A DNA stretch of 20,000 nt, from IMG/VR virus record IMGVR_UViG_3300026095_000001; one strand, 5' to 3'. The notes under the pieces were generated by a model that saw only the letters and a program-made list of their open reading frames with translations, was not told the DNA's origin and did no database searches. Below, piece by piece: positions 1-17,304 of this stretch; positions within the stretch are counted from its first letter, which is position 1; the number at the start of each line of letters is the position of its first letter. The translations under genes and the position numbers were made by a program. The DNA is from an uncultured virus (IMG/VR IMGVR_UViG_3300026095_000001) (taxonomy: Duplodnaviria; Heunggongvirae; Uroviricota; Caudoviricetes; Crassvirales).

Positions 1-1
1 C

Positions 2-3000
2 GCCAATAGCTACATCATGGGTCACCAGTATTATAATCAACTGGTGCAGCAGGGGGTTCTTCCCGGCGATGCCGCGCACAAGGCCGACCAACTGATCACA
101 AAGAATCTTCTTACTGATATGGTCATGACGCCGTTGCAGATGGGGCTATTGAAAATGCCAATGGGGAACGCAGCAGCAAAAATCCTTGGATATGGCGCGG
201 AGGGGTTGACATCCGGCGTGCATTTCACCATTCAAGATTTCAACCAAAAGAACACCGATAATCCCGCGATGCACATCATTGATTATTTGCAAAGCGGCGA
301 TTGGAAGGAACCGATGTTAACGGGGGCTGTGCTTGGCACTATGCAAAAGGCGGCGGTCGATGGGCTACACAATTGGTCCGTGAATTCCGAGACAAAAAAC
401 ATGTTCAGCTATGGGCGAAAATACGGCACGGATGTGCGGAATAGTTTGCCCAGCAATGAGACGATTGCCAACAATGTATTGTCGGCCATTGAAATGAGAG
501 ATACCCCTGGAAGGCCACAGGAGCTAAAGGACTTAGTCGATGCCATGCAAGAAACCGGCGTATACCGGGAGCATGAGGCAAAGCGCGTCAAAGACATTAT
601 TGATGATGTCGTAGCGGCAAAAGCAATGACGCCGAAGTTCGGGAACCCACTCCAGCGAATGGCAGTTTTCAATGAATTGTTGAACATTCGAAGTGCCAAT
701 GAATTCAAAGAAAATGCAGGCGGAGAAGCGGGCGAAAAATATATCAATCAGCTGAATAAAGTTAGTGAAGCCAGGATACAGCGGATCATGGCAGATGAAG
801 AACCGTTGTATTTTATCAACGGCAACGAAACGAATAAGATACAACTTATGCGCGCGCTGGAGGAGAATCCTGAGTTGCTTTCCAGTAAAGCGGTGCGGAT
901 CGATGTTCGCAATGATCCTACTACGCAAAAACAAATAGCCGATTTAAAAACAAAGCAAGATGCCATTCAAAAGCAAAGCACAGCAAAGGCTGATGTTCGC
1001 CCTGCATCCAGCGATAGCGAAGCGGTGGGCGGACGAAATGAAGGCCAAAGGGCAATCGATAAAAAAGCTTCCGGAGAAGAAGCCAACGCCGACCAGAGGG
1101 TAGAAGAAAGTCGACACAGCCTCACCCCACATGATGAGCAGGGGATTGTTTCCGGACAAAACCAGCTCGGTCTATCAGATGAGGGCGTAGTAAAAGCCCA
1201 TGAACTAAAAGATGAAGTGCGAGCTAATAAAAACGTTACGAAGGTCATCTCCAGCGATTTAGCCAGGGCGAAAGAAACGGCGGACATTGTTGGCGGAGAC
1301 GACATCCCCGTCGAAACACGACCCGAATTGCGCTCATGGGACCTCAAAGATTTCAGCGGGATGAAAGACAAAGATTTCAAGGAAGTCTTAAAATGGTTCG
1401 GCGATCACCCAAATGAAGTAAAATACCAGGGGGATATCGAAAGCGCGAAAGGGAAAGAGCTGGGGGAAAGCTTGAATGATTATGCCAACAGAGCCATTAA
1501 AGCCCGTCAGGATGTGGAAGATAATGATCCCGGTTCATTCCTTATCAGCCACTCCAACAACATGAATGTATGGGAAGCGTATAAGGCTAATGGGCGGGTA
1601 TGGGATGAGCATGCTATTAAAGATTATATCTCTCGACCCTCTCCGGAGCCAGCAACGATTCAACCAACGGAAGCAGAAAATGCCACGGGTCACCAAGTTG
1701 TAAATGATATCGAGAGCGGCAAGATATCGGATGAACAATTAAAGGACACCGCTCGTCTATTCATAGAAGATGAAGCATACCAACCAGAGCCCGCTGATGC
1801 GATTTATGCACCTGATGCAGCAAAAGCCGGAAATAATGAACCTGATGAAGCATCTCGACAGTACTCAAAAAGAAAAGGTCCTGAAAAATATGTTCCGCCA
1901 TCTGGCGAAGGGGGCGAGCCTCCAAACCAAGATTCAGGCGCCGAACCCCTTCCCGAAAGTGGAGGCACCCCCGACGCGTCTAGGTTGACACGTAACGCTA
2001 AGCAGCTTCTAATAGCCGGTCGTACAGACGATCAGATTGTTACCTATCTCAAACGCAAAGGGCTGGGCGAAGAGGAGGCATTGGCAGCATTAGGTGCGGC
2101 AAAGGCAAATCCAATTGATGAGCAACAAAAAGCAAAGTCGATCCAGGAAGTAATGGATAAATACTTCGGCAAAGAGGATGACTGGCTAGGTAATAAAGAG
2201 CTGGCGAAGGTTAATTCGCAACAAACCACCAGAGAATACCATGAGGCTTTAAAAGAGTCCGTTAAGCAGGACAATACGCAGAAAGGTACATCCTGGAAGG
2301 ATGTAGACAAGGCCATACAGATTTATCTGGATAGTAAGCGAAATCCGGAACATATCAAGATGTACTATGATAAGCTCACACCTGATCAAAAAAAGATTGT
2401 TGATCTATCACAGCATTTAAATGAACGTCAAAAAGAAATTGCGGATGCCATTCGGGAGGAGTATGATGCGATTGGGCAACAGGCAAAAGACGCGTCTTTA
2501 ATTAAAGACGTTATCGATAACTATGTAGCCAGGGCCTGGGAGCTTAGGAATGGTAAACCAGCCACACAAGAGAACTTCAAATTCAATACGTCTAGTAAGC
2601 ACCAATTACAAAGAACACTAGAAACCATTTTGCAGGGTTACGCGGAAGGGATGAAGTTGAAAATTGAGGGGGCCACCAATAACCTTCACGTCTTAAAACA
2701 AGAAATCAACAACGTCATAGAGAATCGTAGGTTGTTGGAGCAGGGACTTTCGCTGAAATACGCCTCTGGAGAAAAATATCCCAGCGGTGGCCGCATAAAG
2801 AAAACATTGTTTTCTACAACGGCAGAACCAGGATATAAAAAAATAGAATCCGGCGCTTTTAAAAAGTGGGAATATGCTGGCAAATTAAAAGATTACCCTG
2901 AACAGGAAGCGGTCGCGCTAGGTCGGCGAAAGGATATTCTCGTTACAGAGGATGGAGTTGTAATGAAGAAAGCAGATGTTTATGCGCCCGAAGAGGTTGC

Positions 3001-4420
3001 AAAGTCGTTGAACAATATCCTCGCTAGTCGCAGGTCATCCAGCGGGTTCGTGAATGGGATTGCGGCTTTTAACAGCGCAGTGAAACAATCCATCTTATCG
3101 TATTCTGGATTTCACTTTATTGCCTTTACGCGGGCGCATGTCCTTAGTACCAAATTCAGCAAGCCTGCCGACGTCTCGCCGATCACGGCATATAAGGCGG
3201 GGCTGCAAATGTTGGCAGAACAGCATCCCATTGGTCAGAAGCTGATCCAGAAGGGGATGACACTTAACCGTCAACCGGATTGGGTTGAAGGAGTTGAGGC
3301 GCACAATACATGGCTAGGAAAGCAAATGGATAGGCTCTCCTTTACGAAGGCAGCGAAAGATAAGTTAATTGATCTCAATACGCAGTTTCATCACTATCTG
3401 TTTAATACCTACGGAGCCGGTCTGAAAATGTTTGACGGCGTAAACATGGTAAAGCAGGAGCTGGCAAAGAATCCAAATGCCAATCCGGATGAAGTATATG
3501 CCCGCGTGGCAAAACTAATGAATGATACGTACGGCGGTATCAACTGGGATCGGATGAGAGGGACCCACATGCAAAACCCGACCAACCGCCGAGTGGCCAG
3601 TATGTTGCTCCTGGCCCCCGATTGGACCGCGAGCAATTTACGAATGGCGCGAAAATTTTTTGCGCGGGGGGATGAAGGGGGATTGTACCGCAGAGCATGG
3701 GGGCGAGTCCTGCTACGGGGGGCTATGCTGACGACAGCAGCCAATGCAATTATGGCAGTTTGGGATGACAAAGATGATAACGGAAACGACCTCACCTGGA
3801 CAGAAGCCATGCAGCGAAGGTATTCCAAATCGTGGGAGTTGGGTAAGCTGCGCTCTACTATGATTGATATTACCCCTCTCTACCGTGCCATCGGTGGCGA
3901 CTCACAGAAACGTGCATACTTCAGCATTTTCGGAGCATACACCGATCCCATTAAGATGCTGACAAATCCAACTGATTTTTTGGAAAGCAAGGGATCATTT
4001 GTATCAAAGGTCGGCCTAGAAGCGCTCACTGGTCAGAATTGGCAACATCGAGAGTTTACTACACTCGATGAACTATTAGGCATGGATGATAAGGGAACTT
4101 TTACCAAAGCCATGCGAGAGCACAAGAAAGGAGAAATTAGCCCTACGACGGGAAAGCCCTATGTAAAGGATCAAGCAGGGCACGCAGCTGGCGAGGAAAA
4201 AGGCGGCAAATTAACTGGGGAATTAACAAAGTGGCCGCAAGGCGGCGCCCATCCAGTCACCTGGATGCAGGCGCCCGCATTCATCCTGAATGAAGTCCGA
4301 GGGATGATGCCTACGGCTGTTCAAAGCATGTGGCAAATCGCAGACGGGGAGAATGATATGGCCACGGGAATTTTGAATGCAGCCGGTTCAGGTGTGCTAA
4401 CCAATAAAGAAAAGAAATGA
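2..4420 (+). CDS. Giant virion/ejection (large polyvalent-type) protein, 5'-truncated, with an internal histidine phosphatase domain
   Basis: The frame is open from the window edge (gcc aat agc tac atc ATG17), so the protein is at least 1472 aa. It is largely helical with disordered linkers. The C-terminal region (..KVGLEALTGQNWQHREF..) resembles the C-termini of phage large polyvalent/internal virion proteins (LPD38-like, tentative). It lies next to the head genes. Confidence 0.7.
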   Translation, partial: ANSYIMGHQYYNQLVQQGVLPGDAAHKADQLITKNLLTDMVMTPLQMGLLKMPMGNAAAKILGYGAEGLTSGVHFTIQDFNQKNTDNPAMHIIDYLQSGDWKEPMLTGAVLGTMQKAAVDGLHNWSVNSETKNMFSYGRKYGTDVRNSLPSNETIANNVLSAIEMRDTPGRPQELKDLVDAMQETGVYREHEAKRVKDIIDDVVAAKAMTPKFGNPLQRMAVFNELLNIRSANEFKENAGGEAGEKYINQLNKVSEARIQRIMADEEPLYFINGNETNKIQLMRALEENPELLSSKAVRIDVRNDPTTQKQIADLKTKQDAIQKQSTAKADVRPASSDSEAVGGRNEGQRAIDKKASGEEANADQRVEESRHSLTPHDEQGIVSGQNQLGLSDEGVVKAHELKDEVRANKNVTKVISSDLARAKETADIVGGDDIPVETRPELRSWDLKDFSGMKDKDFKEVLKWFGDHPNEVKYQGDIESAKGKELGESLNDYANRAIKARQDVEDNDPGSFLISHSNNMNVWEAYKANGRVWDEHAIKDYISRPSPEPATIQPTEAENATGHQVVNDIESGKISDEQLKDTARLFIEDEAYQPEPADAIYAPDAAKAGNNEPDEASRQYSKRKGPEKYVPPSGEGGEPPNQDSGAEPLPESGGTPDASRLTRNAKQLLIAGRTDDQIVTYLKRKGLGEEEALAALGAAKANPIDEQQKAKSIQEVMDKYFGKEDDWLGNKELAKVNSQQTTREYHEALKESVKQDNTQKGTSWKDVDKAIQIYLDSKRNPEHIKMYYDKLTPDQKKIVDLSQHLNERQKEIADAIREEYDAIGQQAKDASLIKDVIDNYVARAWELRNGKPATQENFKFNTSSKHQLQRTLETILQGYAEGMKLKIEGATNNLHVLKQEINNVIENRRLLEQGLSLKYASGEKYPSGGRIKKTLFSTTAEPGYKKIESGAFKKWEYAGKLKDYPEQEAVALGRRKDILVTEDGVVMKKADVYAPEEVAKSLNNILASRRSSSGFVNGIAAFNSAVKQSILSYSGFHFIAFTRAHVLSTKFSKPADVSPITAYKAGLQMLAEQHPIGQKLIQKGMTLNRQPDWVEGVEAHNTWLGKQMDRLSFTKAAKDKLIDLNTQFHHYLFNTYGAGLKMFDGVNMVKQELAKNPNANPDEVYARVAKLMNDTYGGINWDRMRGTHMQNPTNRRVASMLLLAPDWTASNLRMARKFFARGDEGGLYRRAWGRVLLRGAMLTTAANAIMAVWDDKDDNGNDLTWTEAMQRRYSKSWELGKLRSTMIDITPLYRAIGGDSQKRAYFSIFGAYTDPIKMLTNPTDFLESKGSFVSKVGLEALTGQNWQHREFTTLDELLGMDDKGTFTKAMREHKKGEISPTTGKPYVKDQAGHAAGEEKGGKLTGELTKWPQGGAHPVTWMQAPAFILNEVRGMMPTAVQSMWQIADGENDMATGILNAAGSGVLTNKEKK
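960..1103 (+). CDS. Overprinted 47-aa basic small protein (+1 frame inside the giant gene): MPFKSKAQQRLMFALHPAIAKRWADEMKAKGQSIKKLPEKKPTPTRG
   Basis: Read by hand from ATG960 to TAG1103. It matches the pattern MPFKS.AQ.R.M.A.HP.IAKRW......LPE that I recognise from small stand-alone phage ORFs. There is an A at positions -3, -6, -12 and -13 from the ATG, the Bacteroidota initiation context. Confidence 0.75.
   Translation: MPFKSKAQQRLMFALHPAIAKRWADEMKAKGQSIKKLPEKKPTPTRG
1100..1670 (+). other. Histidine phosphatase (phosphoglycerate-mutase-like, branch 1) domain within the giant protein
   Basis: Motifs appear in canonical order: RHSLT (RHG motif; R366/H367 counted from ATG17), GQNQLGLSDEG..KA, VISSDLARAKETA (R417), PELRSWDLKDFSG, GESLNDYANR, FLISH (H512). 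Confidence 0.85.
1770..1988 (+). CDS. Possible second overprinted small protein (72 aa, +1 frame)
   Basis: Same +1 frame and same aagATG context as 960..1103. The sequence looks like amphipathic helices, while the main frame here is a P/E/G/D-rich linker. No family recognised. Confidence 0.4.
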   Translation: MKHTNQSPLMRFMHLMQQKPEIMNLMKHLDSTQKEKVLKNMFRHLAKGASLQTKIQAPNPFPKVEAPPTRLG

Positions 4421-5008: not shown

Positions 5009-7027
5009 ATGTATTATCCCATAGAAGGGGGCAGCGTCGAATTGATCCAGGACTACCCTTGTCAGCTACCGCCTGTAGGCTATGGTAAGAACCGGCTAAC
5101 GGGAGAGCTGGAATACATTGGGGTCATTAAGACCGATCCGAAGAAGGAAAAGCAGAAATGGCGCCGCTTCGAACTGCCGAAAGACTATGCGAAAAAAAAG
5201 AAAGTAGAGGAAGCTCGACAAAAGGAGGACCCGGATCATTTTAACCCGGACCTGGAGAAGCTGCGGTCGCAACATTGGAAGTATCGCCTATGCGGCTTGT
5301 GGATATATATTAACGGCACTCCGACTTATATCCCATGGTCCTACTACATGTACCTCCAATGGTGTCCGTTGGATGTGGGTTATCCAGCGTACCGGGATAC
5401 AGATCGACGATTCTATTACGTGTGGGAATATTGTGTAGAGGACCCGCGTTGTGCTGGGCTGGTAGACATCGAGCGGCGGCGCATGGGAAAAACCTATAAG
5501 AGTGGTTCCATCTTGTTAGATCGGACTTCTATTGCTGCTCACCATCATGGTGGCATACAAAGCAAAACAGGTATGGATGCCAAGGCGGTGTTTTTAAAGA
5601 CGGTCGTGCCCTTCTTTAAAAAGTATCCGGATTTCTTTCGTCCGATTTACGATCAATCGAAAGGGCTGTCTCCGTCTACGGAATTGCGCTTCTTTCAGAC
5701 CACTATTCGCGGAAAGCGGTCCGATATGTTGATTGATCAGCCCGAACTGGAAAGCTGGATTGATTGGGGCAGTGCGGAGCCGTTCCATTATGATGGCTCC
5801 AAGCTGAACACCTATATCATGGATGAGTACGGTAAGACGCAGGAGGTATCCGTATGTGACCGATGGGACGTGGTGCGCTTCTGTTTGGATCAGGATGGTG
5901 AATGGTGTGGCAAGGCGCTACTGACGTCGACGATCGAGGAAATGGAGAACGGGGGTACGGAAGCCAAGCAGATTTGGGAGCAAAGCGATCCAAAACAGCG
6001 CGATGCGAACGGGAGAACGAAGACAGGATTGTACCGCTTCTTTTTACCGGCCTTTGAAACCACCTATTTTGATGAATTTGGCATGCCCGAAACGGAACGC
6101 GCCAAGACCTATTATCTGAATCAACGCGCCGGATTAGCGAACGAACCCCGGCAGCTGTCGTCCATGATCCGAAAGAACCCTTTTACCATTGAGGAGGCCT
6201 TTCGGATAGACGGCGACCGGTGTTTGTACGATTCCCAGAAGCTCAATGAACAACTCGATTGGCTGTCCTGGAGAGAGAACTTAGTGGAACGGGGGAATTT
6301 CGAATGGGAGAACGGCGCGCGGTTTACGAAAGTGATCTGGAAGAAAATGGTGAACGGGCGCTTTCAAATGCCGACGTCCTTCCAGTTTGAAAATCCCAAC
6401 GCTGTCATTCAGACAGCCGCCGGATACGCGCCGAACAATACCGTACGGTTTGCTATGGGATGTGACCCGTTTAAGTACGATAAAGTGAAGGATCAGCGCA
6501 GATCGAAATGCGCCGCCTATGCCTTTCAAAAGTTCAACCCGAATGATGAATTTTTCTCAGATGCTTTTGTCTGCCGATATACCTACCGCGCATCGACGAC
6601 CGGGATGCAATACGAGGATGTGCTAAAAATGGCGTGGTATTTCGGCTGTCAAATCCTTTTTGAAAGCAACGTGGATAATTGGAAAGAATATTTCCGTAAT
6701 CCAGCATTCAGCAAAGTGAATTGCTCCGCCTTCTTAATGACGTTGCCGGGAGAGACAGAACCAGGCCTATACAGTGATGGCGGTGGGCGCACCCATCAGC
6801 TGATCTGCGATCTCACCGAAGACTACATTGAAAAATATATCAAAAAGGTATTTTTCAAAGAGCTCATCAGCGATTGGCTGATTTTTAACCTGGACCGAAC
6901 AACCGAATTCGATGACTCCATGGGCAGCGGCCTTGCTCTTATTGGGGCACGGAAGAAGCTATACCGCACCAACAATGAACTTCATCGGGAAGTAACCGAC
7001 TTTATTAAAATTTATACCGCACTCTAA
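5009..7027 (+). CDS. terL: Terminase large subunit
   Basis: Walker A-like RRMGKT, Walker B YIMDEYGK, coupling motif LLTST, and RNase H-like nuclease motifs GCDP, ILFESN and FDDSMG. Directly upstream of the portal-like gene. Confidence 0.93.
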   Translation: MYYPIEGGSVELIQDYPCQLPPVGYGKNRLTGELEYIGVIKTDPKKEKQKWRRFELPKDYAKKKKVEEARQKEDPDHFNPDLEKLRSQHWKYRLCGLWIYINGTPTYIPWSYYMYLQWCPLDVGYPAYRDTDRRFYYVWEYCVEDPRCAGLVDIERRRMGKTYKSGSILLDRTSIAAHHHGGIQSKTGMDAKAVFLKTVVPFFKKYPDFFRPIYDQSKGLSPSTELRFFQTTIRGKRSDMLIDQPELESWIDWGSAEPFHYDGSKLNTYIMDEYGKTQEVSVCDRWDVVRFCLDQDGEWCGKALLTSTIEEMENGGTEAKQIWEQSDPKQRDANGRTKTGLYRFFLPAFETTYFDEFGMPETERAKTYYLNQRAGLANEPRQLSSMIRKNPFTIEEAFRIDGDRCLYDSQKLNEQLDWLSWRENLVERGNFEWENGARFTKVIWKKMVNGRFQMPTSFQFENPNAVIQTAAGYAPNNTVRFAMGCDPFKYDKVKDQRRSKCAAYAFQKFNPNDEFFSDAFVCRYTYRASTTGMQYEDVLKMAWYFGCQILFESNVDNWKEYFRNPAFSKVNCSAFLMTLPGETEPGLYSDGGGRTHQLICDLTEDYIEKYIKKVFFKELISDWLIFNLDRTTEFDDSMGSGLALIGARKKLYRTNNELHREVTDFIKIYTAL

Positions 7028-9396
7028 TGGCAGAAGAACAAGCAATGCAATCATACCCTCCTCACGACATTGATCCGAAGAAGAAAGACAAAGCCTGGGG
7101 GCTTCAATACGCGAAGGCTTGTTGGTATGACTGGAATTATACGATACCACGTACCGTATTCTACAACGCCGCCGATAAGTACGAGGAGCTTAGGTTGTAC
7201 GCGATCGGAAAGCAGCCTATCAATAAGTACAAAAAGTTGATGGGGGTAGATGAACAGACAAACCAAACTTATCTCAATCTGGATTGGACCGTGCGTCCCT
7301 TCATTGCACAGAAGCGCGATGTGGCCATTAGCAAGATGCTGCTGCAAGGGCATTCGGTCATAGCGACGCCTATTGATCCGACCGCTAAGGCGGAGTTAGA
7401 TCAGTTTTTCGCGGAAGCAAAGGCAAAGATCGCCATGCGGCAAGTGGCGCAGCAGACAAATCCGGAACTAGCACAGCATCCCCTGCTACAGCCCAATGCC
7501 GGGGAGCCCATGGATTGGGAAGAGATGCAAATGCGCGTCGATTTTGGGGAGCAATTCAACCGGGCGAAAGATGCAGAAGAGGCGATCCAATTGGGGTTCT
7601 ACGAGAATGACCTGGAGCTGTTCGAACAAAAGATATACGAAGATTTGTTTGATCTTGGTGTGGCCGGATATAAGGAATGGCTTGGAGACGACAACAAACC
7701 CAAATTCAGAAACGTCAATCCGGAAGCCGTCGTCACCAATTACTGCAAATGGAAGAACTTTAAGGACCTTATCCATGCAGGTGAAGTGATCGATGTTTCG
7801 CTCATCGATTTGGCGACCATGGAAAACGAGGACGGCACGACGACTTTTACGCAGGAAGAAATTGAAAGTATGAAAAACGCCGTGGCGGGGAAATGGAGCA
7901 ATCCTTCCATGGTAGGGCGGAGCACCAACTATTTCAAAGGCTATGATAAGTTCAAAGTAAAAGTGCTTGATCTCGAATTCTTTTCGTATAACATTCTCAA
8001 CTTCAAGGAATGGAAAGACAAACGTGGAAACACCCGATTCAAATTCAATGATGCGCTTCCCGACAAGCGGGATAACGATAAAACTAAGTACGACCAGCGA
8101 CGCGTGAAGGTGGTTTATTGTATCAAATGGGTTGTAGGGACCGACTACGCGTATGATTTTCACCTCAAGCAAGATATGAAGCGCAGTGTGGACCCCAAGA
8201 AAAAAGCGGAGACCTCGCTAAGCTATCGTTTTATCGCTCCCAATTTCTATGAAATGCGCGCCTTGGGCATGATGGAACGCCTTATGCCACTAATTGATGA
8301 ATATCAAATCGATATTTATAAGATACAGAACATTTCTAACCGCATTGTGCCGAATGGCTGGTGGATTGATTTAGATGCACTCGAAAACGTAGCATTGAAC
8401 AAGGGTGGGGAAAATATGAAACCGTTGGACCTGATTCAAATGTTCATGGAGACGGGGGTTTTGGTCGGGCGGTCGCAAGGGGTAATGGGTGACAACGTCA
8501 ACTACAAACCCATTATTCCCATACAAAACAGCATTGCATCCGAGATCGTGGCACTCTTTCAAAAGATGCAGATCACGATGAATCAAATACAGGCGATGAT
8601 CGGCCTCAATGACATTACGGATGCCAGCACACCCAGTCCCAAGCTGTTGAATGGCGTGGCGACGATGATGGATCAGGGGACGAATAATTCGCTTTATCCC
8701 ATGATCCTGGCTAAGAAATACCTCATGACCCAGCTGGCCAATGATGTCCTGATTCGTATTCAACAGGGGCTACGGAAGGGAGGCGTAAGCGGATATGCAC
8801 CGGCGCTGAATTCGAATACCCTTAAGTTCATGGAGATATCCAGCGCCCTCAGCCTGCGGGACTACGGGATCATGCTGGATGAGAAGCCTACCGATGAGCA
8901 AAAGCAAATGCTCATGCAGCAGTTGCAATTCGATATACAAAACGGATTTCTGGATACGTCCGATGCGTTTTACATTATCAACGTATATAATGTTAAGCAG
9001 GCACAACAGATACTTTCGTATAGGGCAAAACGCAATAAACAGGAGATGGAACAGGCCAAGCAGGCAGCAGCTATGCAGCAGCAGCAGGCGCAAGCGCAGC
9101 AAACAATGATGGCCGGGCAGGCACAGCAACAGCTCGAAGCACTGAAACACCACAATGCGATGGAATTGCAGATGCTAAAGGGTCAGCAAGCCATGGAAGA
9201 ACTGAAGCTGAAAATGGGTGTCCAGGCGCAAGCGGCGCAGCAAGCCAATCAGGTTAAACTGGCGGGCCATGTTATCCAGGCCAATACCCAGGAGAATATG
9301 CAGAAGCGAGAAATGGGGATGCCGGAGGAACAATTGCAGGGAGGACCGCCTGCACCGGATATAGAACGCAACATTCCGGAGGAGGCCATGACCTGA
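7027..9396 (+). CDS. Portal protein (podovirus type, with a Q/A/M-rich C-terminal coiled coil)
   Basis: 789 aa, coupled to TerL by a TAATG overlap. The N-terminus (K..WGLQYAKA..W) and the long Q-rich helical C-terminus fit large podoviral portals. Confidence 0.85.
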   Translation: MAEEQAMQSYPPHDIDPKKKDKAWGLQYAKACWYDWNYTIPRTVFYNAADKYEELRLYAIGKQPINKYKKLMGVDEQTNQTYLNLDWTVRPFIAQKRDVAISKMLLQGHSVIATPIDPTAKAELDQFFAEAKAKIAMRQVAQQTNPELAQHPLLQPNAGEPMDWEEMQMRVDFGEQFNRAKDAEEAIQLGFYENDLELFEQKIYEDLFDLGVAGYKEWLGDDNKPKFRNVNPEAVVTNYCKWKNFKDLIHAGEVIDVSLIDLATMENEDGTTTFTQEEIESMKNAVAGKWSNPSMVGRSTNYFKGYDKFKVKVLDLEFFSYNILNFKEWKDKRGNTRFKFNDALPDKRDNDKTKYDQRRVKVVYCIKWVVGTDYAYDFHLKQDMKRSVDPKKKAETSLSYRFIAPNFYEMRALGMMERLMPLIDEYQIDIYKIQNISNRIVPNGWWIDLDALENVALNKGGENMKPLDLIQMFMETGVLVGRSQGVMGDNVNYKPIIPIQNSIASEIVALFQKMQITMNQIQAMIGLNDITDASTPSPKLLNGVATMMDQGTNNSLYPMILAKKYLMTQLANDVLIRIQQGLRKGGVSGYAPALNSNTLKFMEISSALSLRDYGIMLDEKPTDEQKQMLMQQLQFDIQNGFLDTSDAFYIINVYNVKQAQQILSYRAKRNKQEMEQAKQAAAMQQQQAQAQQTMMAGQAQQQLEALKHHNAMELQMLKGQQAMEELKLKMGVQAQAAQQANQVKLAGHVIQANTQENMQKREMGMPEEQLQGGPPAPDIERNIPEEAMT

Positions 9397-9477: not shown

Positions 9478-9804
9478 ATGCCTGAATATTACAAGAAGGT
9501 AGTATGCCGGCAGTTCACGCTCTCGCCGGAAGAAAAGGAGGCCATTGCCAAGAAGCAAACGGTCACTTTCGAGGGACAGCCTGTCCGGGAGTCTGCGGGA
9601 GGGAGGTACCATATCTTGCTCCCGATCGGCGATCGATTAATCCCCGTACACGAGTCGGATTGGATTATTCGAAATCCTGAGATAGAGATCAAGCGCGACC
9701 ACGAATTCAAAAATCAGTACGTCTCTTTTGATAACATCGATACGGTAGCGTTAGAAACTCGACTGAGCGATATCCGGGCACAGAAAGCCAAAAATTCAAT
9801 ATGA
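9478..9804 (+). CDS. Small hypothetical phage protein (108 aa from ATG9478)
   Basis: ATGA overlap with the next gene. The pattern YKK..CRQF ... SDWIIRN ... EFKNQY loosely resembles the widespread phage family KKPV.IEA..F...GDWII...F..TY. Confidence 0.7.
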   Translation: MPEYYKKVVCRQFTLSPEEKEAIAKKQTVTFEGQPVRESAGGRYHILLPIGDRLIPVHESDWIIRNPEIEIKRDHEFKNQYVSFDNIDTVALETRLSDIRAQKAKNSI

Positions 9805-10934
9805 AGGTATTTTACGCAGATGACGCTACGCCGGGCTATGGCGGTATCCCTACGGATGTGATTGCCGCGCTGGCAAAGAACGGCGTGCAGACCAAAGAAG
9901 AAGGCGGTGAAGAAATTCCCAACATTGTAACCAAAGCAGAGGAACCCGCCGCTCCTGAGCCGGCTGCTACGCCCGAGGAGGTTAAGCCACCGGCTCCCGT
10001 TGTCACTACCACCACGACGAGCGCTGCTGAACTTACGAAAGTAGAAGTAAAGGAGCCGCCCGTCACGGTCAATTGGCGGGATGAATTGAAGAAAGCGCAG
10101 CTGGCGGAAGTATTGAAAGAGTTAGGCTTTGATGATAAAATGGTAGGTTTTGCCAACACCTGGAAGGCAGGTGGTGACCTTACCAGTTATCTTAAGGCTG
10201 CACTCATTGATTACAACAAGATGTCGCCAGAGGATTTGATGCGCCAGCAGCTGGCGGAGGAATATCCGGAATTCAGCCCCGAGGATTTAGCCGAATTGTA
10301 TAGGGCAAAAATTATAGATCAATACAAGCTAGACCCAGATGTCTACAGCGAGCAGGAAGTGAAACGCGGAAAGCTGCTGTTAACAGCAGATGCCAAGAAG
10401 ATAAGGCAAGAGTTAACGAACCGGCAGCAAGAGTACATCCTGAATGCAAAACCTCCCGAGCTTCCTGATCCAACCAAAGAGTTGGAGGCGCAGGCTCGGC
10501 AACAAGATGAAGATCGCCAAAAGGCGTTGGATATATATAAGGCCGCATTCGATAGCCATCAAGCTACCAAAGACCTGTTGTCAAACAAGGTGTTGACCAT
10601 AGGAGAAGGTGAAGATCGGTTTAATTATGAAGTGGCGGACCCGAATAAGGTGCTGAGTATTTTGCAGGACCCCGTTCTCTGGGCGCAAACCGTTTTCAAT
10701 CCGGACGGCACACCGCAAATAGAAAAGCAACTGGCCATGTCGGCCGTAGCGATCGACCACAAGGGCGTGTTTCGTGAAATCTTCAAAGCAGGCAAAGCGC
10801 AAGGCGCGAAGCAAGCTCTGGAGCAATTAGAAAATGCTAAGAAACCAGATGCCCCAGCAGCGGCATCGGAAAAACCACTCACACCCGCCCAGGCATTAGC
10901 TAAGAGCGGCATCCTGACGTTTGATAACTTTTAG
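9801..10934 (+). CDS. Capsid scaffolding/assembly protein
   Basis: 377 aa with an acidic P/E/A/T-rich disordered N-terminus followed by helical coiled coil. It lies immediately before the capsid gene. Confidence 0.72.
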   Translation: MKVFYADDATPGYGGIPTDVIAALAKNGVQTKEEGGEEIPNIVTKAEEPAAPEPAATPEEVKPPAPVVTTTTTSAAELTKVEVKEPPVTVNWRDELKKAQLAEVLKELGFDDKMVGFANTWKAGGDLTSYLKAALIDYNKMSPEDLMRQQLAEEYPEFSPEDLAELYRAKIIDQYKLDPDVYSEQEVKRGKLLLTADAKKIRQELTNRQQEYILNAKPPELPDPTKELEAQARQQDEDRQKALDIYKAAFDSHQATKDLLSNKVLTIGEGEDRFNYEVADPNKVLSILQDPVLWAQTVFNPDGTPQIEKQLAMSAVAIDHKGVFREIFKAGKAQGAKQALEQLENAKKPDAPAAASEKPLTPAQALAKSGILTFDNF

Positions 10935-10978: not shown

Positions 10979-12328
10979 ATGGCAGCAGGTGCACAGGGCA
11001 CGATGAACAAAGCGTTCGTCAGCGCTATATCATTCCTTGATCAGAGGGACATCAATCCAAATTTGCTCGACCAAAGCCGTGATGCGGAATTTACCGATAT
11101 CATGAAGCTGGTGGGGCGCTACAAAGAAGCAAAGGTCCCCATCTATAACTATTTTGTCAACAACGATGTATTCGCCGATGGGGTAGTCTCCTCGGTGTCC
11201 AGCGGATACGGCACGGCCATCATGACGGTGGTCCTAACGTCTGCCAGCTCTGGATATGTACGCGTGGGAGACCTAGTCCGAAGCTCGAATACTAACATGA
11301 TAGGGCAGCAGGCCTGGGTGAAGACTGTAACGAGTGTATCTGGCGTGGATACAATTGTCTTGCAGTCTGTCAACAACAACCCATTGTACGCCGTTGCTAC
11401 TGATATCCTGGCCTTTTCTTCTAATGCATTTGGTGAAAAGTCGGATGCGCCGGTAAACCGTAAGTACGGCGTTACGCGGTACATCAACCAAGTGCAGATT
11501 TTCCGGGAAGTGGATGAGATCACGGATATCCAAAAGGTTTCCAAGATCGAAGTCTCCATCAATGGGCAACCGTATTACACACCGTTGAACCACATTTACA
11601 AGCTGAAATCCCTGAATGGGTTTATTTCAGCGCAGATGATCGCGGGCGTACAGTCAACCACTTTGTATGCTGATAGCAACCCTTATCTCGCGGATGCCAA
11701 TGGTAACCCCATTCAGACAACCATGGGGCTGGATCAATACGTCACCACCTATGGGATTTCTGGGCAGGTAGCTACGCTTGGCACCGTCGGATTCACCGAT
11801 GTTAACACGATGATCGATAACTTCATCGCCAACAAAGCGCCTCATCAACAGATGGGCTTCTGCGGTAGCCGCGCGAAACGACCCTGGGATGTCTGGTTGA
11901 AGAACCTTGGCTCTTCCGGCGTTACTTCAGTACGTCTGATCATCGATGGCCGTTCGGTTGATATGGAAGTAGATCACTTCCGGTACGGCAATTTTGAATT
12001 CGACTTCATTTACTTGCCGATCATTGACCATCCCCAGCTTTTTGGGCCTACGGTTGTACCGGATATCAACGGTTCAATCTACTGGGTCCCTAAGGATAAA
12101 ATACGGGTAGAAGGCGGAGGTATGGAAGCCCGCTTGCAAATTCGTTATCTGCCCAAGCCAATGGCGGGCGGAAACAGCATGAGCAACGGGATCATTACCG
12201 AATGGCATACCGGCGCCTTGGCTCCCATCCCCACGAACAGTGTCATGGTATGGCATACCGATTGGTATACCAACCAAGGCCTGGAAGCGCTTGGGCTCAA
12301 GCATTTTCAAAAATTCCGTGTTGTATAA
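10979..12328 (+). CDS. Major capsid protein (HK97 fold expected)
   Basis: 449 aa, follows the scaffold, has an AT-rich leader and a terminator after it. Capsid-like motifs: SNAFGEKS, NQVQIFRE..EIT, TTMGLDQYV. Confidence 0.85.
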   Translation: MAAGAQGTMNKAFVSAISFLDQRDINPNLLDQSRDAEFTDIMKLVGRYKEAKVPIYNYFVNNDVFADGVVSSVSSGYGTAIMTVVLTSASSGYVRVGDLVRSSNTNMIGQQAWVKTVTSVSGVDTIVLQSVNNNPLYAVATDILAFSSNAFGEKSDAPVNRKYGVTRYINQVQIFREVDEITDIQKVSKIEVSINGQPYYTPLNHIYKLKSLNGFISAQMIAGVQSTTLYADSNPYLADANGNPIQTTMGLDQYVTTYGISGQVATLGTVGFTDVNTMIDNFIANKAPHQQMGFCGSRAKRPWDVWLKNLGSSGVTSVRLIIDGRSVDMEVDHFRYGNFEFDFIYLPIIDHPQLFGPTVVPDINGSIYWVPKDKIRVEGGGMEARLQIRYLPKPMAGGNSMSNGIITEWHTGALAPIPTNSVMVWHTDWYTNQGLEALGLKHFQKFRVV

Positions 12329-12337
12329 GCATATATC

Positions 12338-12365
12338 AGCAGCCCCGTAAGGCTGCTATTTTTCT
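12338..12365 (+). terminator. Rho-independent terminator after the capsid gene
   Basis: AGCAGCC-ccgtaa-GGCTGCT followed by ATTTTTCT. Confidence 0.8.
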
Positions 12366-12383
12366 CACTTTAACCAAAATTCA

Positions 12384-13271
12384 ATGTTACGCGCTGTCAA
12401 AGGCTACAACGATCTATCCGAAGGGCTCCGCAAAAAGCTCAATGAGGAGCGGACGCTTGTCGGCAAATATGCTCGGTACAAATTTTACATCGCCCGCAAA
12501 AATCCCGATGGGCAACACAAGCCTGGCGAGGAGTACATCTATCCGGCCTTGTATACACTCACGCCTGTCACCTTTTCTATCGTGGAAGATAGGGTACCCA
12601 AACAGATTGGGCTCTATGATGGGTATGAGGTACATAATGACGAACAGGAAGTACGTTTCCGGCGTGTCAATTTGCGGGACCGGGACGAAGGTATATTAAC
12701 CCTTGACATGAGTGTGCCGGAACACGTGGAGGTGTTCGAATACCTGGAGCTACACCCAAAGAACGAAAATGGATTTTTCCGGGATAAGAACATCCCGGCC
12801 ATGTTCTGTCGGACCGATGAGTTGAAGGAAGCCAAGCAACGCCTTCGCACCAAAGAATTGCGGGGACAGGCTATGGTAGTGGCAACGCGTATGAACGAAC
12901 AGGAGGTGAGAAATTTCGCTGCTGCCATGAACTGGAATGAGCTGGAGGATCACGAAATCCTGAAAGATAGGATGATCGAGATTGCGGACAAGGACCCTGA
13001 GTTCTTTCGCAAGTTCGTTGATGATCCCGCTAATGAATACAGGGCGACAGTCCGCCGCGCCATTGATGCGAATATTATTTCCTGGATTCCACTGGAAAGC
13101 AAGTTCACCTGGACATCCAATGGAAGTGTCATAGCGGTCCTCGATCGACAGGGCGCGGCGAAGTTCCTGGAAGGCATGGCGGAATGGCTCATCACTTCCA
13201 AGAACGGCCCAGAAACCTATAAGAAATTGAAAACGCTTCTTTCTGGAAAAGAGGTGGTTCATAAAGAATGA
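12384..13271 (+). CDS. Head-associated hypothetical protein (post-capsid gene)
   Basis: 295 aa with a good A-rich start context. It occupies the slot directly after the capsid gene; no function recognised. Confidence 0.8.
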   Translation: MLRAVKGYNDLSEGLRKKLNEERTLVGKYARYKFYIARKNPDGQHKPGEEYIYPALYTLTPVTFSIVEDRVPKQIGLYDGYEVHNDEQEVRFRRVNLRDRDEGILTLDMSVPEHVEVFEYLELHPKNENGFFRDKNIPAMFCRTDELKEAKQRLRTKELRGQAMVVATRMNEQEVRNFAAAMNWNELEDHEILKDRMIEIADKDPEFFRKFVDDPANEYRATVRRAIDANIISWIPLESKFTWTSNGSVIAVLDRQGAAKFLEGMAEWLITSKNGPETYKKLKTLLSGKEVVHKE

Positions 13272-13343: not shown

Positions 13344-14585
13344 ATGCCCGATCTATCGCAATACATATCGATTGGGGTGACGTTGGATAAGAGCCAGCCG
13401 ACGCCCACGCTCCGGATAATTGATAACTCCAATTATCCCATGGGTGTCGCGCAGACCATCGCTGGAATCCTTTCTGTCACACAGCCGGATAACATAACCG
13501 TGGCGAATACCAACTTTTCCAGCCCCGACATCTATTGGGATAGCGGCGCGTTGGTGCCAGCAGACCTGGAGCTCCGTCTTGACAATTCCAACACTTTTCA
13601 ACGCGGGGGAAGCGGCTACCGGATCACCTATACGGTACGGGCGCCTGGGTATTCCGATACGGTGTTGATGAAGGTTTTTCCATTGACCTATACGCCGCCC
13701 AGCATTGTCATTTCCAATAACTTTGACATCTTCACGCCTGATCTCAGTGTGCAAGATGCAACCGGATACACACAATCGTCGCAAGATTTCGTTTCGGTTG
13801 CCAGGAGCTGGAGCGCCGATATCATTTCCGTGTTAGGCGTGACGCAAACCATTTCAGGAACAGGGCAAGTATTCGATTTGAATTACTTGGGTAGCTACTA
13901 CGATTCCCAATATGATATTACGCTCACCATCTTTCCGCAATGGCGGCTTCAGGGGGTATACAATTTCGTGACCATTATCGATGATCTCGTCGATACCCTC
14001 ACGCTCTATGCGCAAATCCCTCCGACATTATCCGCATTGCAAGCATCTTTGGCAGCACTAAAAACACAACTGGATGCGGCTGTCTGCGATTGCAATACCT
14101 ATATCATTTTATTTGATCGGTATAATCTGGCTTCCTCTATATATGCTCAGCTGGTAGCGAGGGGACAAAGCGGATCGCTGGCTGGACTCGATACGTATGT
14201 CTATCAGCTGGAGAAGATATTTAACAACAACGTCAACCCGACCTACGTCAATACCAATACGCTCATACCCCCCTACGACTGGGGCACCGGCAGCGGATCG
14301 GTGGCCTGGACGAATATTACTGGAAAACCGAATACCGTTACCGTCGAGTGGCTAGTGGGTGATGTCGGGTTCCCCGGACCTGGATCGACTACGTTTACGA
14401 ACGCCAATCTGACCAACGTGCCTGTAGGCAGGGTGTATGTATTCAGAAACGGCCTGCCGCAATTCTCCTCTAATCCAGGTGATGGGGACACGTACTATTC
14501 CAAGAATACGGCAGACAATTTTCTCACTTTTTCATTAGCGCTTGCGTCCAGTGAAAAGATTATCGTCCTAATACTACCATTGTGA
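13344..14585 (+). CDS. Virion structural / tail-associated protein (413 aa)
   Basis: Start reassigned to ATG13344 (MPDLSQY), downstream of the hairpin. Beta-rich and T/S/V-rich, with the fibre-type motif WTNITGKP and a C-terminal VYVFRNG..Q module. Confidence 0.7.
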   Translation: MPDLSQYISIGVTLDKSQPTPTLRIIDNSNYPMGVAQTIAGILSVTQPDNITVANTNFSSPDIYWDSGALVPADLELRLDNSNTFQRGGSGYRITYTVRAPGYSDTVLMKVFPLTYTPPSIVISNNFDIFTPDLSVQDATGYTQSSQDFVSVARSWSADIISVLGVTQTISGTGQVFDLNYLGSYYDSQYDITLTIFPQWRLQGVYNFVTIIDDLVDTLTLYAQIPPTLSALQASLAALKTQLDAAVCDCNTYIILFDRYNLASSIYAQLVARGQSGSLAGLDTYVYQLEKIFNNNVNPTYVNTNTLIPPYDWGTGSGSVAWTNITGKPNTVTVEWLVGDVGFPGPGSTTFTNANLTNVPVGRVYVFRNGLPQFSSNPGDGDTYYSKNTADNFLTFSLALASSEKIIVLILPL

Positions 14586-16918
14586 TGAAAAAGATTCTTT
14601 TTATAGTACCACTTTTGGTCGCATTAGTATGCACAGGACAACAGATACAATATCTGGGGGGTCCTACCACGCAGATTTACATACGCGGGGAATTGCGTGT
14701 AGACACCGTAGTCTATTTTCCGCTACGCGATACCAACTTTACCCCCTCTCGAATTGGGGGGCTGGTGGTGAAGGGAACACAACCATATATTTGGACAGGT
14801 ACGAAATGGACGGCCATGTGGACGGGGAGCCCCATTTGGGGACAGATTGAAGGTACGTTATCGGATCAAACAGATTTGCAGACAGCGCTCAACGCCAAAC
14901 AAAATACCATTTCGGCCGGGTATGGTATTAAAATAGCAACGAATACTATTTTATTTGATTCGGCCAACGTACGGAAAGTCGATACGGTATATCGGCTCAC
15001 GGATTCTACATTGGCATTTAAGATTAATGGCATTTCTTATTCCGTACTCCTTCGCGGAACAGCGGCGGGAGGTATTAACTCTCTTGTATTGAGTGTCCCT
15101 TCCGCTCTTTTCACGACGCCAGTCACGTTCAGCAATACGGGAGGGGCCTGGACCGGTACACTGAGTACGCCGAACCAGTCAGCCAATGCTTTTTTCGCTG
15201 GACCTTCGATTGGCTCGCCTGCCCAGCCCGCATTCCGGCAATTGGCCACGGCTGACCTTCCTACGGGCATTCCCAATGGTAATCTGGCGACACCTTATTT
15301 GAATTTTGGTATTGGGACCTCCGGTAGTGATGTTAATTGGAACGCCACACCGGTGAACCTCGGTGGCACTGCTACCCTCAACGTGCCGGATGCAAGCGCT
15401 TCGAACCGGGGAGCGCTGAAAGCCGTCGACTGGAGCTTTTTCCATGGAAAACTAGATTCGGTCCATATTTCCAATGACTCGGTATACAATTGCGCCAATG
15501 GTACTTGCACGTTACAGAGTGTGCTGGTCGACGCGCTGGCCAGAGCGTTGGGGTCCGCGCACCTTTTCGTAGGTAACGGGAGTAATATAGCGACCGATGT
15601 AGCGCTATCCGGCGATGCCTCTATCGTTAATACCGGCGCATTAACAGTAACGGGACTTAAAGGGAAAGCATTACCCAGCCTTACGCCGGGTGTCCTTCAA
15701 TACAATGGCACCAACTGGCTGCTGAACAGCGCAGGCGTCACCGCCGCTTACAATGGGTTGACCGACAGCAGCGGCACCGTGAAACTGGGAGGGGCGCTGA
15801 ACCAGAATACGGAAATCGATGATTCGACTACCGATCCATACTACATCCATTTTAAGACAACGCCGGCGCCGGGGGCCTCCTATAACCTCGGTCCCTTCCC
15901 GCGTTTTTTCTTCGGCGAAACGGTTACGGTGCCTACGGCGGCAAATACGAACTACATTAACGATACCCACGACAACCTCAACTCACCCATTGTCGTGTCC
16001 CGGAATGTAGCGATACCGGATTTCAATAACGTCCCCTTTTTGACGCTCACGTCCGGAGATGGTCTGCAAATCAATGGCTGGCTTTTCAAAAACTTCACGT
16101 CCGTGGCCGGCAAATACGAGCCGCGTCTAATGACCTTCAATAACCAGGATTCGGCTATCCAGCAACATGGGTACTACCACATCGCCTATATGAAACATGG
16201 GCGCATGACGGGATCAGTCTCCAGCGCTTATGTCTTCGCATATGAGAACGTCGACTCCTTCAGTCTCTCGAATAAAACCGGCAGCATGGTGAACCACGTG
16301 GCTTCGTTTGTCCTGGAGACCGGCAGCTTCCATCCCTTTACGGTAGACAGCGCATGGCATGCACGTATCGGCGATACTGGTTCCATCGGGAACATTACGG
16401 CGGATGGGCAACTGGAGCTGGTCAATGACCAGACCCCCTGGGGAGTCATCAATAAGAACAATCTAGGAAAAAATGTATTCAGGGGCAAAGTGACCATCGG
16501 GGGATTTTTTCCGGCGACCGACACCAGTCATCAACTGACGGTGATCGGTGATGCAAAGATCAACACCAATCTTTATTCGAATCACCTGCTTGGACTGGGG
16601 AGCGCGCCGGCCAGCAGCGCGCTGGGGACGAATGTCACCAGCCTCACGATAACGGGAAGCGATGCTTATATGAAATTAGTGCTGGTGACCTCCGGTGCGG
16701 TCTCTGGAAGTCTGGGAACCATTACCTATGCGACGGCATGGGCCAATACCCCAATTGGTGTGATCAGCTATGGCGATGCGATAACCGGTGCAGCGGTAGC
16801 GGGATCAGGCGGGGGATACATCGCCTATGGGGCGACCAGCACGACTCAAGCGACGTTGTCCGGAGTGATTACAGGAGCGGGGACGTATACTTTTTATGTA
16901 CACACAGGAGGAAATTAG
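14585..16918 (+). CDS. Tail fibre-like protein with an N-terminal signal peptide (777 aa)
   Basis: TGATG coupling to the upstream gene. Signal peptide MKKILFIVPLLVALVCTG|QQ. Fibre-type motifs WGQIEGTLSDQTDLQTALNAKQ, FFAGP..G..AQPAFRQL..ADLP and PDASASNRGAL..DW; G/T/S-rich overall. Confidence 0.75.
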   Translation: MKKILFIVPLLVALVCTGQQIQYLGGPTTQIYIRGELRVDTVVYFPLRDTNFTPSRIGGLVVKGTQPYIWTGTKWTAMWTGSPIWGQIEGTLSDQTDLQTALNAKQNTISAGYGIKIATNTILFDSANVRKVDTVYRLTDSTLAFKINGISYSVLLRGTAAGGINSLVLSVPSALFTTPVTFSNTGGAWTGTLSTPNQSANAFFAGPSIGSPAQPAFRQLATADLPTGIPNGNLATPYLNFGIGTSGSDVNWNATPVNLGGTATLNVPDASASNRGALKAVDWSFFHGKLDSVHISNDSVYNCANGTCTLQSVLVDALARALGSAHLFVGNGSNIATDVALSGDASIVNTGALTVTGLKGKALPSLTPGVLQYNGTNWLLNSAGVTAAYNGLTDSSGTVKLGGALNQNTEIDDSTTDPYYIHFKTTPAPGASYNLGPFPRFFFGETVTVPTAANTNYINDTHDNLNSPIVVSRNVAIPDFNNVPFLTLTSGDGLQINGWLFKNFTSVAGKYEPRLMTFNNQDSAIQQHGYYHIAYMKHGRMTGSVSSAYVFAYENVDSFSLSNKTGSMVNHVASFVLETGSFHPFTVDSAWHARIGDTGSIGNITADGQLELVNDQTPWGVINKNNLGKNVFRGKVTIGGFFPATDTSHQLTVIGDAKINTNLYSNHLLGLGSAPASSALGTNVTSLTITGSDAYMKLVLVTSGAVSGSLGTITYATAWANTPIGVISYGDAITGAAVAGSGGGYIAYGATSTTQATLSGVITGAGTYTFYVHTGGN

Positions 16919-16947
16919 CAACCATTGAGGCAAAATACTATCATTAT

Positions 16948-17304
16948 ATGAAGGCATTACTTTTTTTCTGCCTATTTGTGCCCCTTTTGGCGGCTGGGCA
17001 ATCGCAGGCGAAGCCCATATTGAAGGCGAAGATCAATATTGATTCAGCCGCGATCCATTATCCGAATTCTGTCGTGCATGTCAATGCCGACTCCTGCAAG
17101 GGGCATGTGACGCTAACGCAATGGCTGCAAATAAGCGGCCCTACCCGGGCGATCTTCACGCCTATTCTCGGTACTTCCATGGCTATTTCCGGGTTGCAGC
17201 CGGGCACATACCGTTTTCAATTATTCATCAATGGTAACAATGATGATACGGCCTCTGCTTATATCAATGTTAAAATGTATCCGCCTGTATTTCGTAAGCA
17301 GTAA
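16948..17304 (+). CDS. Exported Ig-like (PKD/K319L-type) single-domain protein (118 aa)
   Basis: Start reassigned to ATG16948. Signal peptide MKALLFFCLFVPLLAAG|Q, then the PKD-like pattern W.QISGP...ISGLQPGTYRFQL. Confidence 0.72.
   Translation: MKALLFFCLFVPLLAAGQSQAKPILKAKINIDSAAIHYPNSVVHVNADSCKGHVTLTQWLQISGPTRAIFTPILGTSMAISGLQPGTYRFQLFINGNNDDTASAYINVKMYPPVFRKQ

Follow-up and report, generated by a model that had tools for sequence, protein, structure and literature searches.

Does a short open reading frame (ORF) lying wholly inside a far longer ORF of the same strand represent a gene in its own right, and, if so, which of the two readings came first? The question is raised by a 20,000-nucleotide (nt) stretch of DNA from an uncultured virus of the Crassvirales (IMG/VR record IMGVR_UViG_3300026095_000001), referred to here as the window, in which an ORF of 47 amino acids (aa) at 960..1103 on the plus strand is nested out of frame in the giant ORF 2..4420, hereafter the host gene. 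On the basis of comparative sequence analysis, it is very probable that the short ORF is a real, independently initiated gene embedded in a giant polyvalent-type gene, and that the linker of the host protein written over the same bases is largely its by-product. Ribosomes would start at ATG960 within the giant mRNA, at an A-rich, weakly folded start of the Bacteroidota type devoid of a Shine-Dalgarno (SD) sequence, and would produce a 47-aa basic protein composed of two short helices and a Lys/Pro-rich tail. The acidic linker of the host protein would be constrained just to stay free of stop codons. The small gene would be the older reading, through which neighboring or extended genes came to read.

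An intact reading frame within the giant gene

The embedded ORF starts with the ATG at 960, ends with the TAG at 1101-1103 and translates as MPFKSKAQQRLMFALHPAIAKRWADEMKAKGQSIKKLPEKKPTPTRG (47 aa; P0001), which is exactly the peptide that an earlier note on this DNA had read in the +1 frame between ATG960 and TAG1103. It occupies window frame 3, i.e., +1 relative to the giant ORF in frame 2 (the T of its ATG is the third base of an Asp codon of the giant), and lies wholly within this longer same-strand ORF and out of frame with it, a layout of the embedded Rz1-in-Rz type. The giant frame over the same bases reads DAIQKQSTAKADVRPASSDSEAVGGRNEGQRAIDKKASGEEANADQRVEE, the linker also given in that note. 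The assignment of 960..1103 (plus strand) as a gene for a basic protein of the phrog_1375 family is based on the sequence, a profile match, an AlphaFold2 (AF2) model and a frame scan. The small frame is shut by TAA at 945-947, four codons 5' of ATG960, and a small-frame stop was found 1-6 codons 5' of the embedded ATG in 9 of the 15 giant-host loci described below.

Contigs from four DNA sequencing runs were compared with the window, a comparison which shows presence only. The contig from an independent run (X2) spans 757-1291 with zero differences and zero indels, and that from DNA run X4 spans 792-1030, also with zero differences or indels. Since both contigs agree with the window without an indel, the two frames are not an assembly artefact. 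Run X1, the sample of which may be the source of the window, contains a second contig of 226 nt that matches the embedded ORF only (window 958-1081), with 18 differences and a 5' sequence unlike that of the window, an indication that this community included another phage with a related copy. The runs with window DNA are rhizosphere and soil metagenomes.

A large family of small phage proteins

P0001 matched the phrog_1375 profile with an E value of 4e-6 (28.1 bits), residues 3-44 aligning on profile positions 17-59 of 70. In a collection of 5.8 billion proteins, 35 of the 68 candidates of 25-83 aa matched at E <= 0.01, and the best relative of P0001 showed 79% identity (E 6.5e-14). The alignment of 36 family sequences (A1), which was used as a profile, has the invariant columns P2, F3, S5, A7, Q8, A20, L37 and P38, while M1, K4, K6, R10, P17 and E39 are conserved in at least 90% of the sequences; the window peptide has all of these residues, the invariant ones included. 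All but two of the A1 N-termini are MPFKSKAQ or a near variant (one bears one additional residue and one a 12-residue extension). The window peptide carries both family motifs, namely, the N-terminal M-P-F-K-S-K-A-Q at the start codon and LPE(K) before the basic tail. The earlier note had described the motif as that of a recurring small phage ORF, and both A1 and the phrog_1375 match are in agreement with this.

With the A1 profile, the number of 50%-identity cluster representatives retrieved was 4249 at a cutoff of E <= 0.001 and 874 when the cutoff was set to E <= 1e-10. The best 150 representatives range from 51 to 1163 aa (63 of at most 83 aa, 30 of 84-149 aa, 54 of 150-499 aa and 3 of at least 500 aa), the module is nearly always found from residue 1, and 131 of the 150 start with MPF. 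The module thus occurs as a small protein of its own or else at the very N-terminus of a longer protein. Stand-alone homologues, for which a search had been proposed, thus exist: in addition to the 35 small candidates, annotated stand-alone coding sequences were found in isolated phages, i.e., gene 48 of Streptomyces phage FlowerPower and gp9 of Mycobacterium phage Barnyard. Stand-alone copies are also present on contigs of metagenome-assembled genomes (MAGs) labelled with many phyla and in actinophages. In-frame fusions to long proteins accounted for 28 of the 81 candidates of 84-2000 aa at E <= 0.01, the partners being DUF5661, DUF6582, Gly/Ala-rich stretches and 980-1210-aa proteins without known domains. 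No Pfam domain was found in 46 of the 49 long fused forms, and the three with a match showed DUF5661 twice and GGDEF_2 once. In one fused member, P0061 (294 aa), the module occurs in frame once again, in a more divergent form, close to the C-terminus.

A tblastn search of 50,697 phage records with P0001 gave nothing at E <= 0.01, and the same records searched with the family member P0024 gave 11 records at E <= 1. No mention of the motif, the PHROG number or DUF3008 (discussed below) was found in a search of 8.4 million papers and preprints, and among the papers listed for nested or overlapping phage genes, none dealt with the MPFKS family as far as their titles and the opening of their abstracts show.

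Recurrence of embedding in unrelated host genes

Viral contigs were scanned with A1, which gave at least 370 relatives among at least 600 pattern matches, of which the best 80 loci were retained. Another 21 loci, mostly MAG contigs, came from scanning species-representative genomes, and four from a scan with the N-terminal 553 aa of the giant. The counts are based on 89 unique DNA sequences of small ORFs of at most 80 aa from the fetched loci and the window. Fifteen of the 89 copies lie in stop-free host frames of at least 1000 aa (1071-3117 aa), 14 in frames of 300-999 aa (hosts of 382-440 aa), 16 in frames of 100-299 aa, and 44 are not nested; these shares are not frequencies, the loci having been selected for their similarity to the peptide or, in four cases, to the giant. 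The relative frame is identical in all 29 clear embedded copies (offset 2, with the small ORF at +1 of the host), and each of the 29 has the ATG. The codon for Phe3 is TTC in 29/29 embedded copies, and the other 60 copies have TTC in 39 and TTT in 21; Phe3 as TTT would make TAA in the host frame.

There is scarcely any relationship among the giant hosts: in blastp comparisons, the window host and that of L007 share the overlapped stretch only, and those of L043 and L055 share nothing. LPD23 and a DarB-like C-terminal region are present in the hosts of L043 and L074, and a weak ART-PolyVal match in that of L077; the 15 giant hosts are probably divergent polyvalent-type proteins. The medium hosts form a homologous acidic set of 382-440 aa with 20-23% Asp+Glu and a scaffold-like character, and those of L042 and L056 directly follow a phrog_6547 portal. 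In the medium hosts, there is just one start codon 5' of the conserved residues, at a distance of 23-55 codons upstream of the embedded ATG. As giant and scaffold-like hosts both carry copies, the small gene is embedded in two unrelated host kinds. Among the 16 offset-2 frames of 100-299 aa, those of L011, L024, L030 and L054 hold ORFs of 125-174 aa with upstream start codons, and four loci of this size class scanned against PHROG gave no match. Such frames may represent a third kind of host gene or chance open frames.

The host gene of the window (2..4420, plus strand), recognized as an ORF and through its relatives L083 and L001, encodes a giant protein of at least 1472 aa, putatively of the virion or polyvalent type, its 5' end being cut by the window. 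Residues 320-368 lie directly over the embedded ORF, within an acidic/polar linker (aa 320-370; 959..1111, plus strand) that is less conserved than the small frame. A histidine phosphatase domain, His_Phos_1 (aa 371-521; 1112..1564, plus strand; PF00300, E 2.2e-20), starts three codons 3' of the embedded stop and is the sole Pfam match of the giant when tested as a polyvalent protein, the 5' part of which is absent from the window. The giant is 54% identical to that of L083 and 65% identical over 366 aa to that of L001. The similarity to L001 lies 5' of the embedded ORF, 3' of which (L001 6141 onward) the sequence is non-homologous and shows no Pfam match. Since the His phosphatase starts just after the embedded ORF and L001 diverges downstream, the embedded ORF marks a module-swap junction. 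A tblastn search of the giant protein against the 50,697 phage records gave no match, and the record nearest to the window, a fragment of 5.9 kb, does not match the giant protein either.

Translation start and likely bacterial host

A putative translation initiation region, which is A-rich, has no SD motif and contains TAA 945-947, lies at 941..959 (plus strand). ATG960 has A at -3, -6, -12 and -13, as the earlier note had stated, and also at -2, -7, -8, -10, -11 and -14; among the 125 ATG triplets present from 21 to 4417 in all frames, no other has all four of the former adenines. The role proposed for them, that of initiation determinants in Bacteroidota, agrees with the study of Baez et al. 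(2019; PMC6847099), where profiling and reporters show that these adenines raise initiation in Flavobacterium johnsoniae, the mRNAs of which are described as lacking SD sequences. The 50 nt around ATG960 fold at -1.1 kcal/mol as compared to a mean of -8.4 over 873 host-ORF segments, 1.8% of which fold as weakly or weaker. The start region falls within the 5% least folded host-ORF segments in 10 of the 15 giant loci, a result that in part follows necessarily from the A-richness of the conserved N-terminal codons.

Nine of ten other gene starts in the window (4417, 5009, 7027, 9801, 10979, 12384, 13287, 14582 and 18096) are without GGAG, GAGG or AGGA within 25 nt upstream, which fits a bacterial host not using SD pairing. 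The motif TAnnTTTG was not found in window 1-1200. A GGAG-type motif was found 7-13 nt before the embedded ATG in five of the 15 giant hosts (L043, L074, L077, L093 and L096), where it is written into host codons; the GC content, computed for L043, L074 and L077, is 47-55%. An SD-like motif was present in none of the 14 medium hosts as against 24 of the 44 non-nested copies. Relatives of the terminase large subunit of the window were found in 89 phage records, all below 60% identity (26-31% among the matches listed), of which 86 were phages of Flavobacterium, Cellulophaga, Tenacibaculum or Maribacter and 3 were uncultured. A Bacteroidota host is likely for the window phage.

The A-rich stretch could alternatively serve a programmed +1 frameshift on the A run 946-950, resulting in a truncated giant that ends in the MPFKS module and in no free 47-aa protein. 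The host codons TTA AAA ACA (944-952) would allow the Lys-tRNA to re-pair one base forward, after TAA 945-947, and several hosts of the Bacteroidota type share a TTAAA motif located 12-16 nt upstream. However, the slip would have to occur within just four codons in the window and within 1-6 codons in 9 of the 15 giant loci, and the ATG is present in 29/29 embedded copies. The occurrence of MPF at residue 1 in 131 of the best 150 representatives indicates that the module works as an N-terminus. The A run is also missing in L043, L074, L077 and L093, which have GGAG at SD distance instead. Such a frameshift is improbable. A separate possibility, a -1 slip at ATA AAA AAG (the IKK codons) that would take ribosomes out of the small frame and into the giant one to give an MPFKS-giant fusion like P0062, was rejected, since six of the eight giant hosts examined (L007, L043, L055, L072, L074 and L077) have no KK at this place.

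Selection on the small frame

An intact ATG-MPFKS ORF was found in all four relatives retrieved with the window giant, namely, L083 (54% identity), L084 (26%), and L085 and L086, which match the giant across the overlapped stretch only. Comparison of the first 26 codons between the window and L001 revealed nine nucleotide differences, distributed 2/0/7 over small-frame positions 1/2/3, with 96% identity in the small frame vs. 72% in the host frame. When 13 nested loci were compared in all 78 pairs, the counts of differences on small-frame positions 1/2/3 were 600/447/761 and, hence, lowest at the host-frame third position.

Frame scans were carried out on codon alignments of the giant genes in 40-codon windows. 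At the embedded ORF, the +1-frame identity was 0.95 vs. L001 and 0.85 vs. L083, where the host frame showed 0.675 and 0.575, respectively. Outside the overlap, the +1 identity reached a maximum of 0.45 (239 windows, L001) and 0.53 (342 windows, L083), and it exceeded the host identity solely in windows overlapping the embedded ORF. Further pairs were scanned with 30-codon windows, the value inside the ORF being compared with the maximum outside. Three of five such pairs were clear outliers, i.e., L056-L102 (0.80 vs. 0.50), L102-L107 (0.83 vs. 0.43) and L055-L072 (0.90 vs. 0.57); a sixth pair, L056-L046, had no ungapped window inside the ORF. Judged from these codon comparisons, the small frame is under purifying selection.

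The pattern also bears on the possibility that the module is a dead relic, once in frame or separate and now out of frame through indels or fusion, which is untranslated and whose conservation is inherited. The existence of in-frame fusions (28 of the 81 longer candidates), the second internal in-frame copy in P0061 and the truncation of one embedded copy (L103) are in favor of this. Yet, the hosts have diverged beyond recognition, whereas the embedded peptides keep 50-96% identity, the ATG and the stop. Moreover, it is at third positions of the small frame that the differences accumulate, third positions of the host frame showing the fewest, and the +1-frame identity is an extreme outlier at the ORF. 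A dead relic is, hence, quite improbable.

The host frame across the overlap

It may also be asked whether the giant frame is translated through the overlap at all, as there could be two genes with the small gene between them and a host frame open by chance. Chance openness is not rare, the same alternative frame being open in 9 of 44 stand-alone copies, and the domain content changes at this very place, with the His phosphatase three codons on and L001 diverging downstream. But all 15 hosts of 1071-3117 aa and all 14 of 382-440 aa are open, always in one frame, and the alignment between the window and L083 crosses the overlap in a single frame (713 aligned residues, aa 1-725). In the scaffold-like hosts, the sole start 5' of the conserved residues precedes the embedded ORF. 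A ribosome in the host frame must read through, as there is no stop codon in the overlap. The chance that two separate genes flank the small gene is, therefore, small. Conservation at the nucleic acid level (a packaging, recombination or regulatory site) with an incidental ORF is hardly credible, for although the ORF lies at a module junction of the giant gene and near the terminase genes, the substitutions are biased toward third positions of the small frame, the stand-alone family is called as proteins with their own starts (with an SD motif in 24 of 44 non-nested copies), and the family occurs in many different genomic positions.

The embedded-ORF observation is far beyond chance, and an independently initiated gene at 960..1103 is the reading best in keeping with the data. 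Several observations nevertheless weigh against it, beginning with the choice of loci and the A-rich N-terminal codons mentioned above. Two of the further pairs scanned showed no outlier at the ORF (L046-L106, 0.60 inside vs. a maximum of 0.73 outside; L043-L077, 0.77 vs. 0.73), and both frames are about equally conserved in the scaffold-like group (0.73 vs. 0.76). On a MAG contig labelled Crocinitomicaceae with a scaffold-like host (L103:5001-5180), the embedded copy is stopped after 22 codons; the remainder no longer reads as the family while the host frame is intact, and this copy looks decayed. No RNA run was among the listed sequencing runs with the window stretch. A function was also not indicated by any of the searches: P0001 had no Pfam match at E <= 1 and the 36 family members nothing meaningful, NCBIfam gave no match, a sequence profile search of the PDB gave a best E of 2.5 and a Foldseek search of the AF2 model against the PDB a best E of 7.7, and the 46 Pfam-free fused forms of 49 offered no fold or family that names one.

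The earlier note had proposed a fully nested real gene with the host linker as its by-product, and had named the lack of stand-alone homologues, the loss of the ATG or of the open +1 frame in homologous giant genes, and preferential conservation of the host frame as outcomes that would speak against it. Its proposal is supported, since none of these tests went against it when run: stand-alone members are plentiful, the ATG and the open +1 frame are kept in 4/4 giant relatives and in the 15 giant hosts overall, and frame-specific conservation favors the small frame in both the scans and the codon-position counts.

Origin of the overlap

The small frame is taken to be the older reading and the host linker the derived one, because the small family is far wider than any host. 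De novo birth of the gene inside the giant was rejected, the small family being far wider (4249 representatives) and the hosts mutually unrecognizable. Hence, the word "overprinted", by which the earlier note had titled the gene, has the direction reversed, while its closing statement that the linker is a by-product fits, the breadth of the family making the linker frame the younger reading.

One of the two alternative frames of the small gene would tend to be stop-free, and this frame would require Phe3 to be TTC. Across the stand-alone copies, the offset-2 frame is open in 9/44 and the offset-1 frame in 6/44. With one synonymous change at Phe3, TTT>TTC, the host frame becomes open. In the stand-alone copies L045, L094 and L095, an upstream ORF of 74-134 aa terminates 11 nt into the small gene at a TAA formed by the TTT of Phe3 and the next AA; one change synonymous in the small gene would, therefore, let the upstream gene read on. 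This stop-loss route is represented by 3 of the 22 TTT-bearing copies, in which an upstream ORF of at least 60 aa ends in the TTT+AA stop. An origin by loss of the stop of an upstream gene has thin support. In a tree of 77 peptides (47 columns), 2 of 71 inner branches were well supported, and the nested state required 7 changes vs. about 22 with shuffled labels; a single origin is neither shown nor excluded.

Structure, genomic context and possible function

In the AF2 model built on A1, which has a mean pLDDT (predicted local distance difference test) score of 80.7, residues 6-15 and 17-30 form helices, and the basic tail behind them is extended. The nearest named Atlas cluster is a putative DUF3008 (feature score 0.86), 37% of whose members carry DUF3008. 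Membership in DUF3008 (PF11450) was rejected, as none of the 36 family members matched PF11450 even at E <= 10; the Atlas link is a lead and not a membership, HMMER giving no confirmation. Pfam analysis of eight fused or scaffold-like proteins gave no functional lead.

The nameable neighbors of the stand-alone copies were mostly large and small terminase subunits, portal, scaffold/head-assembly or head-closure proteins, with a few in other categories (RusA, a methyltransferase and a regulator). With low confidence, the small protein may be an accessory of the head/packaging module that acts as a basic two-helix N-terminal handle. Such a handle would bind nucleic acid or an internal virion component and would be made from the late mRNA of the giant protein. 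A more far-reaching proposal, which is speculative and rather unlikely as a whole, is that the MPFKS module is a portable gene repeatedly buried in the linkers of unrelated virion proteins, with its synthesis tied in cis to the host gene. In that case, since one frame yields a Lys-rich peptide and the other a Glu-rich linker, the basic peptide could act directly on the protein in whose gene it lies, for instance as a capsid-loading adaptor or a charge-matched chaperone, and the family would be the first with a traceable transition between separate, fused and embedded forms.

In the window itself, the host gene is followed on the plus strand by genes for the terminase large subunit (5009..7027; phrog_6681, E 2.4e-88) and the portal protein (7027..9396; phrog_6547, the same PHROG as the portals preceding the scaffold-like hosts of L042 and L056). 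A 377-aa protein encoded at 9801..10934 (plus strand) is a distant relative of the scaffold-like hosts (blastp E 1.8e-9 to the L102 host in an 8-sequence database) and has no embedded copy. Further same-strand ORF overlaps were observed in the structural region, between 14582-16918 and 16738-17304 (181 nt) and between 12202-12699 and 12384-13271 (316 nt). A PHROG scan of 14582-16918, 16738-17304 and 12384-13271 gave no match.

Comparison with known systems

The closest architectural parallel is that of the Rz/Rz1 spanins of phage lambda. There, too, a larger phage gene contains the whole of a small one, which is read from the same strand in the +1 frame and has a start of its own. Embedded genes of the spanin type are routinely missed by annotation. 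Standard gene callers forbid long same-strand overlaps, so that a gene of the present kind becomes invisible exactly where it is embedded, and the expectation in the earlier note that standard annotation would miss it is shared for this reason. The products of Rz and Rz1 interact. Unlike Rz/Rz1, the small protein described here has no lipobox, signal sequence or membrane segment, its locus is outside a lysis cassette, and its host is a giant virion or scaffold-like protein with no fixed partner family. The difference between the host families, giant polyvalent in one case and scaffold-like in the other, argues against one fixed partner.

The overlapping genes of phiX174 (E in D, K in A/C) are similar in that two proteins arise from the same bases, one of them biased in composition and disordered-looking. 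Unlike overprinting in phiX174, the small frame here appears old and widespread and the host linker derived, so the direction is reversed. The giant hosts resemble the large polyvalent proteins of Iyer et al. (2017; PMC5512222) in being multi-domain giants, with LPD23 and a DarB-like region (L043, L074), a weak ART-PolyVal match (L077) and a His phosphatase (window), the latter being all that the window giant matches. The main text of that study contains no use of "overlapping", "frameshift" or "alternative reading" and uses "embedded" once, in an unrelated sense; going by this main text, a second gene in the other frame of a linker is, therefore, outside the described picture of polyvalent proteins.

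Within phrog_1375, the stand-alone members share the N-terminal motif, the two-helix core and the basic tail with the window copy. FlowerPower gene 48 and Barnyard gp9 are ordinary separate genes, whereas the window copy and 28 others are embedded. With its 4249 clusters at 50% identity, the family is very large, and yet it has no name, Pfam model or function. The window copy is also a candidate for internal SD-free initiation within a long coding sequence, the bacterial host of the phage probably belonging to the Bacteroidota. The separate, overlapping, fused and embedded forms of the family provide a natural series for testing how embedded genes originate and how hosts tolerate the overlap. 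Such a series was sought in the spanin survey of Kongari et al. (2018; PMC6139136) and, in the available part of that report, was not found: 182 embedded, 228 overlapped and 118 separated spanin systems are described there, and no spanin family has members in both the embedded and another architecture. Unlike the spanins, the MPFKS family has stand-alone, N-terminally fused and embedded members. The embedded architecture as such is, hence, known, as in lambda Rz1 within Rz, and what is new is a single family that spans the embedded and other architectures.

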